Positions 1-5,419 of a stretch of DNA of 5,419 bases are shown here, piece by piece. The position numbers and the translations under genes were made by a program. Within the stretch, counting starts at the first letter, position 1, and every line of letters starts with the position of its first letter. The notes beneath the pieces are model-generated. The model worked only from the letters and a program-made list of their open reading frames with translations. It searched no databases and had not been told where the DNA came from. Source of the stretch: a virus; the UHGV virus genome UHGV-0213104. The stretch is one strand, 5' to 3'.

Positions 1-3
1 ATT

Positions 4-339
4 ATGAAATATCCAAAATATCACACACCATTTTCAAACATGAAAGGTGTAGAAATGACAGAAGGTGAAACAATTGAAACAAAAGTAAGAAGAATTGTAG
101 AGGAAAAAGAACCAATTAGCGATACAGCACCAATTATCTATACAAATAGAGCGGACGGTGTAATAGCAGGCTATAACATCAGAACAGATAGATTTGATAT
201 AGCATTATCAGCAATGGATACAGTAAACAAAGCCAAGATTGCAACAAGAAACGGGAAGAACAAAGTAGAGGAATCCGATTCAAATAAAGAAATAGAATCG
301 AATACCGATATGCAAGCAGGAGAGACAAATGTTGCATAA
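4..339 (+). CDS. Hypothetical small protein (ORF1), function unknown. It may be 5'-partial, or may start right after the VP1 stop if the genome is circular.
   Basis: 111-aa ORF. Its ATG at 4 lies in the same (A)nCAATTATGA context as the other gene starts. It sits immediately upstream of the VP2-like gene. It contains a conserved-looking core, PIIYTNRADGVIAGYNIRTDRFDIALSAMD, that I cannot assign to a named family from memory. Its codon and base composition match the rest of the phage. Confidence 0.45.
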   Translation: MKYPKYHTPFSNMKGVEMTEGETIETKVRRIVEEKEPISDTAPIIYTNRADGVIAGYNIRTDRFDIALSAMDTVNKAKIATRNGKNKVEESDSNKEIESNTDMQAGETNVA

Positions 340-375
340 GGCGTAGGAAGCCGTCACTACATTAAAGATGAACCG

Positions 376-410
376 ACCAACGGGAAATGTAAAAACAAAG
401 TACCGTTGGT
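376..410 (+). other. Intergenic hairpin ACCAACGG-(19 nt)-CCGTTGGT between ORF1 and VP2
   Basis: Perfect 8-bp stem (376-383 / 403-410) with a 19-nt A-rich loop. It is not followed by a T-tract. Confidence 0.4.
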
Positions 411-445
411 ACGCATGTAGTATTATATATCTAGTATATTGTAGA

Positions 446-463
446 GCTCTTTTAAAAAAGAGC
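446..463 (+). other. Palindrome GCTCTTTT-AA-AAAAGAGC ~30 nt upstream of the VP2 start
   Basis: Perfect 8-bp inverted repeat with a 2-nt centre; it contains a SacI-type GAGCTC. It could be a hairpin in ssDNA or RNA, or a dimeric protein-binding site. Confidence 0.4.
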
Positions 464-492
464 GAAAATTGTAAATTTAAATTATTAAAATT

Positions 493-1206
493 ATGGCAGG
501 AATGGCACTAGCAGCAGGAGCAGCAGGAGCAGCAGGAACAACATTTGCTCAAACAGCTGGACAAGCATTCGCAAGCGCATTGCCACAAATGGCAATGACA
601 GCAAGCGGGGGAATATTCGGAAGTATTTCAGCAAAGAAACAACAAAAAAGAGCACACGCGTATAATCTCGAATACATGGATAAACAATTTCAACAAAACA
701 AAGAAGCAGCAGCAATTAACCAAGGTTATGCAAAAGAAATGTGGGATTATACAAACTTTGAAAATCAAAGAAAACACATGGAAGCAGCAAATTTAAATCC
801 AGCACTAATGTACGGAATGGGAGGAGCAGCAGGCGGAAGTGCTTCAGGTGCAGGAACAGTCGGAGGAGGAGGAAGTTTGCCAGGTACTAACCCAGTAAGC
901 GCAGGAGCGCAAGCCGGGGGAATGACTATACAGGGTGCAATGATGATGAGTGAAATCGCGAAGAACTTCGCACAAGCAAGTAAAGACGAAGCAGACGCAA
1001 ATAAGAAGAAAGGCGTAGATACAGAAGAAGCACGCGCAAGAATCAACTTGATAGAAAAACAAGCAGAAGTAGAAGAAGAAGTAAAACAACTAACAGCAGC
1101 AAACTATTTCAAAGTATTGAAAGAACAAGAGGAAGTTTCTAGAAAGATGCAGAAAACAAACAGGAAAATCTATAAAACACTGGTGTATAACAGAATTAGG
1201 AGATGA
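493..1206 (+). CDS. Microviridae VP2-like minor capsid / DNA pilot protein
   Basis: 237 aa. The N-terminus is Ala/Gly-rich (MAGMALAAGAAGAAG...). The central block YAKEMWDYTNFENQRKHMEAANLNPALMYGMGGAAGG matches the conserved gokushovirus VP2 signature (M.NTAYQR...DMKAAGLNPALAYG followed by a Gly-rich tract). The C-terminus is charged and helical. The start context is TTAAAATTATGGCA. Confidence 0.85.
   Translation: MAGMALAAGAAGAAGTTFAQTAGQAFASALPQMAMTASGGIFGSISAKKQQKRAHAYNLEYMDKQFQQNKEAAAINQGYAKEMWDYTNFENQRKHMEAANLNPALMYGMGGAAGGSASGAGTVGGGGSLPGTNPVSAGAQAGGMTIQGAMMMSEIAKNFAQASKDEADANKKKGVDTEEARARINLIEKQAEVEEEVKQLTAANYFKVLKEQEEVSRKMQKTNRKIYKTLVYNRIRR
1044..1053 (+). other. Candidate Rep nick site (rolling-circle double-strand origin): exact CAACTTGATA decamer
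   Basis: The 10-mer CAACTTGATA is identical to the first 10 nt of the phiX174 origin, which is the minimal ssDNA substrate of the gene A protein (nick after G, here between 1050 and 1051). It occurs once on the + strand. It lies inside the 3' part of VP2 and ~70 nt upstream of the Rep catalytic-domain coding region. This parallels phiX174, where the origin is embedded in gene A. Confidence 0.4.
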
Positions 1207-1753
1207 AAAAGGAAGGATTCATCTACATGGAATATTTTTCGGACAAAATGTAAACGAAGTAATAAAAAAGAATTGGAAATACGGATTTATATACATAGGA
1301 CAATATGTAAACGAAAGGACGATAATGTACATTACAAAATATATGTTCAAACAATGTGAATACAACAAACTATTTAAAGGGAAAGTGCTTTCAAGTAGCG
1401 GTATAGGTGCGGGGTACGTTTCCCGATTCGATTCCTCGCGCAATAAATACAAAGAGAATAAAAATACAAATGAAACTTATCAATTCAGGAACGGAATAAA
1501 AGTAAACCTTCCGAATTATTACAGAAACAAAATTTATTCAGAAGAAGAAAAAGAAAAACTATGGATTGAAAAATTAGAACAAGGATACATTTGGATAATG
1601 GGAGAAAAAGTAAACGCAAGAAATCCTGAAGAGTTCAGTAAGTGTTTAGAATATTATCAAGCGCGAGCCATTGAACTAGGAGGAGCAAGAAAAGAAGATT
1701 GGGAAAAATCAAAATACATAAGAAGGTTAATAAAGGAGAATAGAAGGCGCTAA
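1121..1753 (+). CDS. Microviridae VP4-like rolling-circle replication initiator (HUH endonuclease). The 5' end is unresolved: the frame is open from 1121 but the first ATG is at 1325.
   Basis: Frame +2 is open from 1121 to the TAA at 1751-1753. It encodes KNKRKFLERCRKQTGKSIKHWCITELGDEKGRIHLHGIFF (RCR motif II, HLH at 1220-1228). It then encodes QYVNERTIMYITKYMFK (RCR motif III, YxxKY, at 1328-1342). The C-terminal SSSGIGAGYV...NLPNYYRNKIY segment matches the gokushovirus VP4 C-terminus (PGIG ... LPRYY). There is no ATG/GTG/TTG in this frame between 1121 and 1325, and no motif I (uTLTu) anywhere upstream. The 5' 86 nt overlap the VP2 3' end in another frame. Confidence 0.8.
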   Translation, partial: KNKRKFLERCRKQTGKSIKHWCITELGDEKGRIHLHGIFFGQNVNEVIKKNWKYGFIYIGQYVNERTIMYITKYMFKQCEYNKLFKGKVLSSSGIGAGYVSRFDSSRNKYKENKNTNETYQFRNGIKVNLPNYYRNKIYSEEEKEKLWIEKLEQGYIWIMGEKVNARNPEEFSKCLEYYQARAIELGGARKEDWEKSKYIRRLIKENRRR

Positions 1754-1760
1754 AGCGCCT
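1745..1760 (+). other. GC hairpin overlapping the rep stop codon (AGGCGC-TAAA-GCGCCT)
   Basis: Perfect 6-bp GC-rich stem with a TAAA loop. The loop contains the rep TAA stop. The following sequence is ACCTTTCGG, with only a short T run, so it is at best a weak intrinsic terminator. It marks the left edge of the GC-rich island. Confidence 0.5.
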
Positions 1761-1768
1761 ACCTTTCG

Positions 1769-1804
1769 GCATTGGACGCCGTGCGGAATGCGCTATGCAG
1801 CGTG
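1769..1804 (+). repeat. Direct repeat copy 1 (36 bp, perfect): GCATTGGACGCCGTGCGGAATGCGCTATGCAGCGTG
   Basis: Identical to 2068-2103. It contains an internal inverted repeat GCATT...AATGC with a 13-nt loop, and the 9-mer CTATGCAGC. Confidence 0.9.
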
Positions 1805-2067
1805 TACCGTGCGGCGTGTTTTTTGTCACCTACGGCGACTGAGAACCTAGGTTCTCTATCCTCTCCTCTTCGGTGTATAGCGGGACACAGCTTTTTTGTT
1901 AGTCCGAGGGATAGCTACCTTCCGAACCGTTTTGGAGTCCGGAGTGCACCCGCGAAACAAGTTCGCGTGGTGTGCGCCTTCGGCGATACTAAGGTGCTAG
2001 TCGCTGAGGGGCGAGTTCTCGCCCTGTCACCCGAGAAGCGCTCTAGCGCCGCGCAGGCGCCTATGCA

Positions 2068-2103
2068 GCATTGGACGCCGTGCGGAATGCGCTATGCAGC
2101 GTG
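2068..2103 (+). repeat. Direct repeat copy 2 (36 bp, perfect). It is preceded by a third copy of the CTATGCAGC 9-mer at 2061-2069.
   Basis: Identical to 1769-1804, 299 bp downstream of it. The flanking bases differ (1768 G vs 2067 A; 1805 T vs 2104 G), so the repeat length is exactly 36. Confidence 0.9.
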
Positions 2104-2117
2104 GTAAATATGTGGCA

Positions 2118-2137
2118 CATTCCGAGATTACGGAATG
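2118..2137 (+). other. Hairpin CATTCCG-AGATTA-CGGAATG immediately downstream of repeat copy 2
   Basis: Perfect 7-bp inverted repeat. The heptamer CGGAATG also occurs inside each 36-bp repeat (GTGCGGAATGCGC). CATTCCG at 2118-2124 could therefore pair either locally or with repeat copy 2. Confidence 0.5.
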
Positions 2138-2249
2138 GAATAAAAAAGAAGAAGAAAAAAATAAATAAATAATTCACACAAAACGGTGAATTAGCCACAT
2201 AAAATTCTCTTAAGATTAAGAATTTTTAATAAAAAAGAGAAGGAAAAAA

Positions 2250-2280
2250 TTTGTAGATTAAAATAAAACGCTTACCTTTG
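2250..2280 (+). promoter_or_regulatory. Bacteroidetes-type sigma-A promoter: -33 TTTG (2250-2253), a 19-nt spacer, -7 TACCTTTG (2273-2280)
   Basis: It matches the Bacteroides consensus (-33 TTTG, -7 TAnnTTTG, ~19-21 nt spacing). It is the only TAnnTTTG in the window. It lies in the A/T-rich intergenic region ~90 nt upstream of the first gene of the small-ORF/VP1 block. The predicted TSS is near 2286-2288. Confidence 0.5.
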
Positions 2281-2366
2281 TAGTGTGAGAAAGAAATAGA
2301 GAAAATAAAACAAATTGTTCCACGTGAAACAAATAAAATATCAACATTAATTTAAAATACAATATT

Positions 2367-2549
2367 ATGATTATCGAATTAAAAATTAAAAAGGGTTCTG
2401 AAACAACTAAGAAAAAAATAGAAGTAAAAGCAGAAACCATTATGGAAATGATAGAAGAAAAATATTTAGTTGAAATATACAATGAATTAAATAAACAAAA
2501 TTACAACCATGAAGCAGGATACATAATATCAATTACAGATAAAGATTAA
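2367..2549 (+). CDS. Hypothetical small protein (60 aa), Lys/Glu-rich
   Basis: ORF with ATG in an AATATTATGA context, the first gene downstream of the predicted promoter. No recognisable family. Confidence 0.4.
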   Translation: MIIELKIKKGSETTKKKIEVKAETIMEMIEEKYLVEIYNELNKQNYNHEAGYIISITDKD

Positions 2550-2569
2550 TAACAACTAAATTAAAAATT

Positions 2570-2767
2570 ATGGAATTATTTACTATTTATTGGGAATCTC
2601 GAAAAGGAGAAGAATTGACAACAATCGAAGAAGCGGAAGACTTAAGAAAAGCATTAAGACAGGTAAACTACTTCGAGAAAAAAACAGGTTACAAAATTGT
2701 AGGTATAGAAATGATTAAAAAAAATGGAAAGGAGGAAAAAGAAAACACTCTATTGGATAAAGAATAG
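2570..2767 (+). CDS. Hypothetical small protein (65 aa)
   Basis: ATG in the AAAAATTATGGAA context, the same motif as the VP1 and VP2 starts. Charged composition. No recognisable family. Confidence 0.45.
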   Translation: MELFTIYWESRKGEELTTIEEAEDLRKALRQVNYFEKKTGYKIVGIEMIKKNGKEEKENTLLDKE

Positions 2768-2981
2768 AGAATTTAAAACATATGGGAAAATGAAAGAATA
2801 CGCATTTTTCCATATGCATAAAGGAGAATCGGAAAGAGCCGATATGATAAACGAAGATGGAGAGATTGAAAAAATCTATCTAATCGAACGAACTGATAGA
2901 CGTGTAATTATAAAGACGGTTAAAGATTACAAAAAAGAACAAATCGAAAAAGAAAACCAAAAACAGTTAAATTTATGGTAA
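2724..2981 (+). CDS. Hypothetical small protein (85 aa from ATG 2724; alternative start at ATG 2790 gives 63 aa)
   Basis: ORF overlapping the 3' end of the previous gene in another frame. The stop TAA at 2979-2981 overlaps the next start (ATGGTAA). The N-terminus is basic (MERRKKK). Confidence 0.35.
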   Translation: MERRKKKTLYWIKNREFKTYGKMKEYAFFHMHKGESERADMINEDGEIEKIYLIERTDRRVIIKTVKDYKKEQIEKENQKQLNLW

Positions 2982-3178
2982 CAAAAACAAAAAAAGAAAT
3001 ATGGATTTTAATATTAAAGATTATTGCGGCAATCGCCGCTGCAATCTTAGGAGTACTAGGAGTACAGAGCTGTACAATGAGTATGAGTATTGCAAAAAAT
3101 AATAACAACGCTACGCAGCAAACAGAGCAAAAAGCTACTAGCGAAGTAAAAAATGATAGTATTAACTTAAAATTTTAA
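2975..3178 (+). CDS. Small membrane or lipoprotein-like peptide (67 aa). Candidate lysis (amurin-like) or superinfection-exclusion protein.
   Basis: N-terminus MVTKTKKE is followed by a 22-residue hydrophobic segment IWILILKIIAAIAAAILGVLGV, then QSC, a loose lipobox-like V-Q-S-C, then a polar Asn/Gln-rich tail. The start is translationally coupled to the upstream ORF (ATGGTAA). It is located just before the scaffold-like and capsid genes. Confidence 0.5.
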   Translation: MVTKTKKEIWILILKIIAAIAAAILGVLGVQSCTMSMSIAKNNNNATQQTEQKATSEVKNDSINLKF

Positions 3179-3478: not shown

Positions 3479-5410
3479 ATGGCAATTACAAAAGCAATCG
3501 GGAAAAATACGGTCGGTGATGGGAATAAAATGACCGTAAGGTTAAACAATTATTACAGAAGTACTCACGATTTGTCGTATGTATGGAAAAACACACAGGC
3601 AGCAGGTCCAATTGTACCATTCTTATGTGAATACGCACAGATTGACGATACACACGAAATCGACTTGTCTGCAATGGTAATTACACATCCAACGGTCGGA
3701 CCATTGTATGGTAGTTTTAAATTACAATTAGATGTATACGTAGCACCAATTAGACTATATCAAAAATTACTACACAACAATACAATGGGTATTGGGCTAG
3801 ACATGTCAAAGGTAAAACTACCATCGTTAAATATTAACTTAAAAAATAGTGACAATCCAACAAAAGATAATCAATTTTCACAAATAAATCCTAGCGCATT
3901 ATTAGCATATCTAGGGCTTAGAGGATGGGGGTTAAATGAAAATCCTAACGCAGAAGTATTCGCAAGAAAAAACGCTGTACCACTACTAGCGTATTGGGAT
4001 ATTTTTAAAAACTACTACGCCAATAAACAAGAAGAAATTGCGTATATGATTTCAACAAATGGGACATATCTCAATGGGTCAGTAGCTAGAAGCGATGAAG
4101 GTAGTACAACAATAAATGATTTTTCAAAATGGACAACCGCGCCAGCGGCTTTAAACATAACTTATGTAATAAATGTAAACAAAAAACCCGCAAACGGAAT
4201 AAATAAAGCATCACTAAATAATATTTTAATAGAAATAGGAGGAACAGGAAGTTTACCAGATAAAAAAGGAAGAATAGTAGAAATATTAGGAAATCCTACT
4301 CAAGACGATACAAAATGGACATGGACTATAGAGGACGTAAGTAAAATAAGAACCATATACAGAATAACATATCAAACTGAAACAATATTAAACCCGTTCC
4401 AATTGTCTATAATTGACGAAACAAGGGAAAATATATTAGCAGCGCCAAGTACAATGCCGTACGTTGTAAATTCAGGAATTCCATACCTATACGCACAAAG
4501 AGATAAACAAAATAAATTGCTAACAACACAACCCATGTACGGACTAGCCTTAAAAACATACCAAAGTGATATATTTAATAATTGGATTCAAACCGAATGG
4601 CTAGAAGGAGAAAACGGAATTAATGCAATTACAGCCATAGACACAAGCTCAGGTAGTTTTACAATGGATACTCTAAACCTAGCAAAAAAGGTTTACAATA
4701 TGCTAAATAGAATTGCAGTATCAGACGGAACTTACAAATCATGGATGGAGACAGTATTTTCGTCAAAATACGTAGAAAGAACCGAAACACCTGTATACTA
4801 TGGCGGAATGTCACAAGAAATCATTTTTGAAGAAGTTATAAGCACATCCGCTGCGGCTAGCGAACCATTAGGAACACTAGCCGGAAAAGGAAGGCTAGCA
4901 CCAAACAAAAAAGGAGGAAAAATAGTAATAAAAATCGACGAACCCTCATATATCATTGGAATATGCTCAATTACACCGAGATTAGATTACAGTCAGGGAA
5001 ACAATTTCACAATGAATTGGGAAACACTCAACGATGTACATAAACCAGCATTAGATATGATTGGTTACCAAGACTTAACAATGGAAAAAGCAGCCTGGTG
5101 GACCGAAACATGGAACGAGAAAGGAGGAAGAAGCGAAAAGAAAATAGGAAAAACCGTAGCATGGATTGACTACATGACAAATTATAACAAGAATTACGGA
5201 AACTTTGCAAGCGGAGAAAATGAAAACTTTATGGTTCTAGACAGAAACTACAACATAGAAACAAAAGATTTTACAACCTACATAGACCCTGCAAAGTATA
5301 ACGGAATCTTCGCAGACCAAAGTCGCTCAGCCATGAATTTCTGGATACAAATCGGTGTAGATTGGAAAGTAAGAAGAAAAATAAGCGCAAAATCAATTCC
5401 TAACTTATAA
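3479..5410 (+). CDS. Microviridae major capsid protein VP1 (F-like jelly-roll capsid)
   Basis: 643 aa. The N-terminal region RSTHDLSYVWKNTQAAGPIVPFLCEYAQIDDTHEIDLSAMVITHPTVGPLYGSFKLQLDVYVAPIRLYQKL aligns motif by motif with the gokushovirus VP1 N-terminus (RS.FD.S...KTT..AG.LVP....E.LPGDT...D.SA.VR...P...P...........FFVPNRLVW). It is the longest ORF, with uniform phage-like composition. Confidence 0.95.
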   Translation: MAITKAIGKNTVGDGNKMTVRLNNYYRSTHDLSYVWKNTQAAGPIVPFLCEYAQIDDTHEIDLSAMVITHPTVGPLYGSFKLQLDVYVAPIRLYQKLLHNNTMGIGLDMSKVKLPSLNINLKNSDNPTKDNQFSQINPSALLAYLGLRGWGLNENPNAEVFARKNAVPLLAYWDIFKNYYANKQEEIAYMISTNGTYLNGSVARSDEGSTTINDFSKWTTAPAALNITYVINVNKKPANGINKASLNNILIEIGGTGSLPDKKGRIVEILGNPTQDDTKWTWTIEDVSKIRTIYRITYQTETILNPFQLSIIDETRENILAAPSTMPYVVNSGIPYLYAQRDKQNKLLTTQPMYGLALKTYQSDIFNNWIQTEWLEGENGINAITAIDTSSGSFTMDTLNLAKKVYNMLNRIAVSDGTYKSWMETVFSSKYVERTETPVYYGGMSQEIIFEEVISTSAAASEPLGTLAGKGRLAPNKKGGKIVIKIDEPSYIIGICSITPRLDYSQGNNFTMNWETLNDVHKPALDMIGYQDLTMEKAAWWTETWNEKGGRSEKKIGKTVAWIDYMTNYNKNYGNFASGENENFMVLDRNYNIETKDFTTYIDPAKYNGIFADQSRSAMNFWIQIGVDWKVRRKISAKSIPNL

Positions 5411-5419
5411 AAAAAAACA

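Follow-up and report, generated by a model that had tools for sequence, protein, structure and literature searches.

A single 813-nt deletion as the probable cause of a Rep gene without start codon or motif I in a circular gut microvirus genome

Phages with single-stranded DNA are known to give rise to deleted and defective genomes, among them the deletion mutants of phiX174 and the Ff miniphage, which depend on a helper phage. A shortened replication protein may also be a normal product: an internal in-frame start within gene A of phiX174 gives A*, a gene A protein shortened at its N-terminus. Finally, template switching by phi29 or PCR polymerases yields junctions identical to those of deletions at microhomologies. 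All three precedents bear on the DNA considered here, a stretch of 5419 nt (the window), whose Rep gene carries an HUH motif and catalytic tyrosines and is preceded by no canonical start and no motif I. Comparison with close relatives indicates that the cause is a single 813-nt deletion.

ORF listing and profile searches find four main genes in the window: an ORF of 111 aa (4-339), the DNA-pilot gene VP2 (493-1206, + strand, an ORF of 237 aa; PHROG 8689), the frame of Rep, or VP4 (1121-1753, +; Pfam PF23343 and PHROG 942), and the major capsid gene VP1 (3479-5410; Phage_F / PHROG 514). In GenBank relatives, at about 50% amino acid identity, the order is VP1, small ORF, pilot, Rep, small ORFs. 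By blastn, nucleotides 1-46 of the relative L005 correspond to window 5371-5416, and L005 from 50 onward corresponds to the window from 1; the ends of the window are likewise adjacent in a second relative, L051. Since they are contiguous in both, the circle is complete at 5419 nt. The window is the whole circle of an Alpavirinae-like gut microvirus after the loss of 813 nt in one deletion, and all genes other than VP2 and Rep are intact. Megablast of the window against GenBank phages gave no match, an Rfam scan of its whole length (E <= 1) gave no hits, ARAGORN found neither tRNA nor tmRNA, and a scan for sigma-70 promoters gave no enrichment over shuffled sequences. Look-ups for identical proteins found no record of VP1, of the 237-aa VP2 ORF, or of the 142-aa ORF in the Rep frame.

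The Rep frame, frame +2, is closed by TGA at 1118-1120 and is then open from 1121 to the TAA at 1751-1753. It encodes ...KFLERCRKQTGKSIKHWCITELGDEKGRIHLHGIFF... and later ...MYITKY.... The translation contains HUH motif II as HLHGIFF (1220-1240, +, with HLH at 1220-1228) and motif III, with the catalytic tyrosines, as YITKY (1328-1342, +); H141 and H143 of the former and Y177, K180, and Y181 of the latter are invariant in an alignment of 58 Rep sequences. There is no ATG, GTG, or TTG in the frame from 1121 until ATG 1325, which begins the only ORF of the Rep frame with a canonical start (1325-1753, +, 142 aa), one without HUH. A preliminary description, made from the sequence alone, had reported this same open frame, its motifs, and the lack of a start before 1325, and rereading the sequence agrees with it in each respect. 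It had also held that motif I (uTuTu; FLTLT in this clade) is encoded nowhere, and indeed the motif occurs in no frame of the window. The profile alignment that it had recommended gives partial matches from which the N-terminus is missing. PF23343 (REP_ORF2-G2P) aligns at 45.1 bits, against a curated gathering threshold of 27.8 bits, with residues 4-78 matching profile positions 20-98 of 99. PHROG 942 is matched only at positions 146-316 of 501; because coverage begins at 146, the N-terminal part of Rep, motif I included, is absent. The HUH motif, the YxxKY motif, and the profile score are thus those of a Rep, while motif I and a complete ORF with its Cys cluster are lacking.

Relatives of this virus show what a complete gene looks like. 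A protein search found eight close relatives of Rep, at 77-94% identity, every one of them 315-317 aa long. The clade members examined, as full-length genomes or as long contigs, come from independent samples, and all have a VP2 of 366-371 aa and a Rep of 315-317 aa. The two genes are separate and complete, with a gap or an overlap of 1 nt between them, and complete genomes measure 6045-6133 nt. Farther away, the 31 more distant relatives in IMG/VR all begin their match at Rep residue 1 or 17, except where a contig end cuts them short. Two shorter proteins were considered as natural short Reps. One, P0009 (136 aa), is an artefact of the gene caller, its frame being open upstream, and the other, P0085 (209 aa), lies on rearranged contigs with inverted segments. 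Neither represents a natural lineage with a short Rep. This gene region is also disturbed in other microvirus contigs: L009-L011 carry inverted segments there, and L008 begins with 49 nt of non-homologous sequence.

Set against its closest relatives, the window is about 91% identical in nucleotides to L051 and about 84-88% to L005, and it is colinear with both, without inversion, on either side of one junction. Blastn matches window 1-1138 to L051 2605-3740 (91% identity) and window 1130-2008 to L051 4545-5425 (90% identity); in L005 the corresponding pairs are window 1-1136 with 50-1176 and window 1130-2338 with 1983-3168. The coordinate offset changes across the junction by exactly 813 nt, whether measured against L051 or against L005. 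This comparison, which had been among the checks first suggested, finds VP2 and Rep intact in the relatives and 813 nt missing here. With the 813 nt restored, the window would come to 6232 nt; the deleted genome keeps 87% of its length. Colinearity with full-length relatives around a single junction, with a block missing at that point, is what a deletion genome would present.

The junction lies at 1130-1138 (+), the crossover falling inside the TTT at 1136-1138, and the geometry of the blastn matches is the same with either relative. The window reads GAGGAAG-TTT-CTAGAAAG at this point, the left parent of the junction reads GACGAAATTTGG in L051 and GACGAAGTATGG in L005, and the right parent reads AAGAAAATTTCTAG. 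The crossover thus occurred in a direct repeat of between 3 nt (TTT, in the window) and 6 nt (AAATTT, in L051), with no inserted bases. The 31-mer across the junction is AAGAACAAGAGGAAGTTTCTAGAAAGATGCA. Searches of IMG/VR and the JGI metagenomes gave no match to the junction sequence; the deletion is thus known from one occurrence.

The missing block, 3739-4551 in L051, comprises 475 nt at the 3' end of VP2 together with the stop codon that they contain, a spacer of 1 nt, and the first 337 nt of Rep. With residues 1-112, Rep has lost its start codon, the Cys cluster, the motif I strand EFLTLTID, and half of the helix that follows. Of the 317 aa of the full protein, the remnant (1136-1753, +) encodes residues 113-317, and after them the stop; it has neither start codon nor motif I and is 94% identical in amino acids to the same residues of the L051 and P0001 Reps. 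When Rep residues 1-112 and the VP2 C-terminus of L051 were compared by tblastn with all frames of the window, the best E value was at least 1, as against 1e-112 to 1e-136 for the retained halves of the same two proteins. Since the block has no counterpart in any frame, it is gone rather than relocated, and no correction of a single base can restore it.

VP2 is also affected. Matches to L051 and to PHROG 8689 delimit its native part as codons 1-214 (493-1135, +), about 58% of the protein. Residues 16-214 are 91% identical in amino acids to the 371-aa VP2 of L051, the pilot profile PHROG 8689 is matched only at positions 11-177 of 327, and homology ends at about residue 214, leaving the C-terminal 157 or so residues (roughly 40-42%) missing. 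Frame +1 over 1137-1206 had initially been taken for the VP2 C-terminus. It is instead a tail of 23 out-of-frame codons from Rep DNA (+ strand), ending in the TGA at 1204-1206, and as nucleotides it aligns to the Rep genes of L004, L005, and L051; the true C-terminus is gone. VP2 and Rep lie in different frames, and therefore, after the deletion, the VP2 ORF reads through 23 Rep codons out of frame and stops. The apparent overlap of 86 nt between VP2 and Rep exists because of the deletion. At its other end, the five codons of frame +2 that come before F113 (1121-1135, KNKRK) are VP2 DNA.

In the alignment of 58 sequences, the deleted 112 residues include four invariant columns (P24, C38, C41, and C44) and 21 that are nearly invariant, among them M1, C2, and the F67/T69/L70/T71 of motif I (residues 67-71). 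The N-terminal Cys cluster, C2/C38/C41/C44, is therefore made up of three invariant residues and one nearly so. An AlphaFold model of P0001, a full-length Rep 94% identical to the remnant, has a mean pLDDT of 91.6 and places motif I in strand 65-72 of the HUH core, the HUH motif in strand 139-147, and the tyrosines in helix 172-182. In this model, the breakpoint between residues 112 and 113 splits helix 100-121 of the HUH domain. The top Foldseek matches are weak (E 6e-3 to 0.1) and all are HUH nuclease domains (AAV Rep, circovirus Rep, and nanovirus M-Rep); a sequence search of PDB with the Rep profile gave nothing significant. With the breakpoint in the middle of a helix and a strand of the core gone, the remnant does not start at a domain boundary. 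Judging from the architecture of the HUH domain, the window would encode no functional initiator. Since the remnant has no initiation codon, it is a non-functional gene fragment rather than a short Rep, and the fitting annotation is a truncated Rep or a Rep pseudogene.

How long ago did this happen? Over the 206 Rep codons shared by the window, L004, L005, and L008, dN/dS of the remnant against each of the three relatives is 0.056-0.070 (about 0.06), and the intact relatives give 0.061-0.081 among themselves. The window has 9 synonymous and 4 conservative (I/V, K/R) changes of its own, to be compared with 9:3, 11:3, and 8:1 in the relatives. A signature of purifying selection like that of intact relatives implies that the deletion is very recent in evolutionary terms. 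By this measure the window is not an old lineage that lives with a short Rep.

Two non-coding regions have been retained, and they make up all the non-coding DNA that is strongly conserved. The first is a conserved intergenic region (340-492, +), a candidate for a cis-acting role in replication or packaging: in an alignment of seven genomes, it is nearly invariant, against differences of 20-30% in the coding sequences of the genomes compared. Within it are the invariant block GTAGTATnATATATCTAGTATAT and a hairpin that shows compensatory changes. For microviruses, the possibility has been discussed that conserved hairpins between genes serve as negative-strand origins (PMC9865509). The second is a structured element directly after the Rep stop (1745-2136, +), with a GC content of 59% as opposed to 34% elsewhere. 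It is conserved with covariation in the relatives and has a fold z-score of -5.6 on the + strand. It has no match in Rfam, and its motifs turned up nowhere in genome_contigs, viral_contigs, or metagenome_contigs. A GC-rich patch at 1412-1447 is a further candidate for a cis element. Both 340-492 and 1745-2136 are putatively cis-acting. The replication origin of the clade could lie within the deleted block; conservation points elsewhere. The trans-acting genes Rep and VP2 are thus truncated while the conserved non-coding regions are kept, the combination to be expected of a deletion genome.

Another candidate origin, the phiX-like decamer CAACTTGATA at 1044, is a unique match and is absent from shuffled sequences. 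In both L005 and L051, the site reads CAACCTAATA, differing at synonymous positions, and a sequence that is not conserved even in the closest relatives is rejected as an origin. The idea, put forward at the outset, that a shortened Rep is paired with this decamer is abandoned with it.

I propose that a single deletion of 813 nt fused VP2, at about its codon 214, with Rep, at its codon 113, across a short direct repeat, in a recent event that may have been replication slippage or copy-choice between microhomologies during replication of single-stranded DNA. By itself the resulting circle would be capable of neither replication nor infection. Any propagation would require a full-length genome, infecting the same cell, to provide Rep and VP2 in trans, an arrangement that the intact non-coding regions 340-492 and 1745-2136 would allow; otherwise the circle would be a dead end. 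In phiX174 the A protein works chiefly in cis, and if the same is true here, complementation in trans would be poor. That the window is a defective genome, helper-dependent or dead-end, arising from one microhomology deletion of 813 nt is in my judgment probable, though well short of assured. Of the four explanations offered in the preliminary description, only the last survives in this proposal, a Rep that is really truncated at its N-terminus, in a genome that is defective or relies on a helper; the description had missed the cause, the 813-nt deletion, and with it the loss of about 157 residues of VP2.

The possibility to be taken most seriously after this one, although on balance unlikely, is that the virus in the sample was intact and that the deletion was made in vitro or in silico, as a template-switch chimera of MDA or PCR or as a shortcut of the assembly. 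Polymerases that switch template typically leave junctions at microhomologies of 3-6 nt, the Rep remnant shows no decay whatever, and the junction is known from a single instance. Furthermore, public assemblies contain clearly artefactual microvirus contigs affected in the same gene region (L008 and L009-L011), and such rearrangements are plainly no rarity. To judge from the sequence, a deletion by slippage or copy-choice and a phi29 chimera would look the same at the junction. An assembly shortcut is another matter: an assembler working with k-mers would not be misled by a repeat of only 3-6 nt, and so the junction must exist in the reads. A clean closed circle, with no branch of 813 nt, also suggests that the deleted form dominated the sample, and the rest of the genome is perfectly colinear and free of inversions, all of which argues against an artefact.

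A more elaborate version of the deletion, and a doubtful one, makes the window a naturally circulating, encapsidated, helper-dependent mini-microvirus, akin to a defective-interfering or satellite genome, which exploits Rep and the pilot protein made by a full-length relative and arose perhaps through aberrant termination mediated by Rep at a pseudo-origin.

Aberrant termination may be considered as an origin of the deletion in its own right. M13 and pC194 are known to give deletions that end at the origin, and in such a scheme Rep itself would have made the deletion, by terminating rolling-circle replication at a pseudo-origin within VP2, the true nick site being at the right-hand junction. 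Codons 111-120, just to the right of the junction, have 60% invariant third positions, as opposed to a typical 10-30%; what has been kept is the arc that leads from the right junction round to the left one, as the scheme predicts; and AAATTT is common to the left and right sites in L051. However, stronger cis candidates are found elsewhere, in 340-492 and the GC-rich patch 1412-1447, and the two sites resemble each other over only about 6 nt. I regard this mechanism as improbable.

Much harder to credit is a functional short Rep, initiated at a non-canonical codon (ATA 1172 or 1187, ATT 1217) or, after the manner of phiX174 A*, at ATG 1325. The frame is open, HUH and YITKY are intact, the remnant bears the mark of purifying selection, and AGGA stands 5 nt upstream of ATG 1325. 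But a very recent deletion explains the mark of selection equally well, and the AGGA is not conserved, L004 having NEKTVM there. No relative uses such starts, their Reps all being 315-317 aa. The non-canonical start, the first explanation originally offered, fails on the structure as well: the remnant begins in mid-helix of the HUH domain, without the strand of motif I, and all relatives start 112 codons upstream. Products from ATA 1172/1187 or ATT 1217 would lack the same parts, and that from ATG 1325 would lack HUH in addition.

Next to nothing speaks for a programmed +1 frameshift, the second of the early explanations, by which the 86-nt overlap of the VP2 ORF with the Rep frame would serve to make a VP2-Rep fusion protein: the overlap is a by-product of the deletion, relatives encode two separate and complete genes with a gap or overlap of 1 nt and show no conserved overlap with a slippery site, 1121-1206 holds no slippery motif, and the fusion would still lack motif I. 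Likewise rejected is a small sequencing indel or base error hiding an intact Rep, which has nothing to commend it beyond the missing start codon, since the 112 missing residues lie in no frame of the window, the genome is 813 nt shorter than its relatives at exactly this place, and the single-base correction once envisaged as restoring an ATG and motif I accordingly fails.

There is a practical lesson in favoring a deletion over these alternatives. When a circular microvirus contig from a metagenome shows a Rep without motif I and without a start, close relatives should be compared for a deletion first, before a new Rep architecture, recoding, or a non-canonical start is claimed. Should the molecule prove real, and plentiful in its sample, it would be a natural defective microvirus genome and could serve to map the non-coding regions sufficient in cis for replication and packaging in an uncultured clade that probably infects Bacteroidota.

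A search of the available literature on defective microvirus genomes returned nothing directly relevant, and the comparison is best made with the systems named at the outset. With respect to the VP4/gpA Reps of the Microviridae (PF23343, PHROG 942; HUH superfamily), residues 113-317 are 94% identical to the full-length proteins of close relatives and HUH and YxxKY are intact, but residues 1-112 are lacking, making the protein encoded here a fragment of a family member and not an intact member. The likeness to phiX174 A* is superficial. The ORF from ATG 1325 would similarly give a C-terminal fragment of Rep, but A* is made besides full-length A and keeps the catalytic motifs, whereas the window encodes no full-length Rep and the product from 1325 would be without HUH. 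The junction, with its repeat of 3-6 nt and no insertion, resembles both the slippage or copy-choice deletions of rolling-circle replicons and phi29 chimeras. By analogy, the genome belongs to a known category, the deletion or defective genomes of ssDNA phages. Like the deletion mutants of phiX174 and the Ff miniphage, it has a single internal deletion, has lost genes that act in trans, and has kept conserved non-coding DNA; unlike the Ff miniphage, which keep mainly the intergenic origin, it retains 87% of its length and is known from one assembled sequence.

The best candidate in this genome for a rolling-circle origin or packaging signal is the intergenic region at 340-492, between a 111-aa ORF and VP2, the DNA pilot gene. 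Among the seven genomes compared, it is far better conserved than coding DNA. It contains an invariant block, GTAGTATnATATATCTAGTATAT, and a hairpin whose arms covary, ACCAACGG/CCGTTGGT in some genomes vs ACCGTCCACC/GGTGGCGGT in others, with another covarying hairpin formed by GAGCTCTTTT/AAAAGAGC. The preliminary description had mentioned a phiX-like decamer at 1044. This decamer (1044-1053), CAACTTGATA, resembles the phiX174 origin and is the only such match in the window (0 of 200 shuffles), but the likeness is due to chance, because the two closest relatives, L005 and L051, read CAACCTAATA at that position, differing at synonymous sites of VP2.

Immediately 3' of the Rep stop codon lies a second element, about 390 nt long (1745-2136), whose GC content is 59%, as against 34% in the rest of the window. 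It is bounded on the 5' side by the hairpin GGCGC-TAAA-GCGCC, which has the Rep stop codon inside it, and on the 3' side by the hairpin ATTCCG-AGATTA-CGGAAT. The plus strand is the better-folding one (z = -5.6), and compensatory changes are seen at 19 of the 61 predicted pairs. The element is kept across the clade, with counterparts in related microviruses at L005 2598-2965, L006 4521-4842, L043 5716-6045, L046 2680-2990, and L007 1189-1575, and the more distant relatives L001, L003, and L009-L013 likewise have a GC-rich stretch after Rep. No match to it was found in Rfam, in GTDB genomes, or in IMG/VR, and no conserved ORF was found within it. Candidate roles for the element are a structured RNA not yet described and a complementary-strand origin like an sso.

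Might the element encode a protein? An ORF of 111 aa beginning with TTG (1772-2107, plus strand) does span it, and the annotation of OP549868 includes a hypothetical protein whose ORF overlaps with the counterpart of this region. In L005, the longest open stretch on the plus strand of the equivalent region is 61 aa; the ORF is not conserved and is most likely a by-product of GC-richness. The element also contains an exact 36-nt direct repeat (1768-1803 and 2068-2103). The second copy is missing from L005 and found at the contig end of L008, which makes the repeat a recent local duplication.

Within Rep itself there is a GC-rich patch, GGGTACGTTTCCCGATTCGATTCCTCGCGC (1412-1447), in which 80% of third positions are invariant, where 10-30% is typical. 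Its codons include CGA, CGC, and TCG, rare elsewhere in this genome, where 50 of 59 arginine codons are AGA or AGG. Such conservation at synonymous sites, together with the rare codons, suggests an embedded cis element. Separately, breakpoints of rearrangements or chimeras fall within the N-terminal coding third of Rep in several unrelated microvirus contigs from public assemblies (L008 1-49; L009 about 334-358; L010 1-63; L011 1-137), in some cases with a join to an inverted segment of the contig's own genome. These breakpoints may mark a hotspot close to an origin, or they may be an artefact that arises repeatedly during amplification.

The promoter consensus of the Bacteroides type consists of TTTG and TAnnTTTG. 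The sequence TTTG-N19-TACCTTTG at 2250-2279 fits this consensus, and its TAnnTTTG portion is kept in L005, L007, L043, and L046. This putative promoter suggests a host within the Bacteroidota and one transcription unit that starts with the small ORFs and continues over VP1, the major capsid gene, and VP2 as far as Rep.
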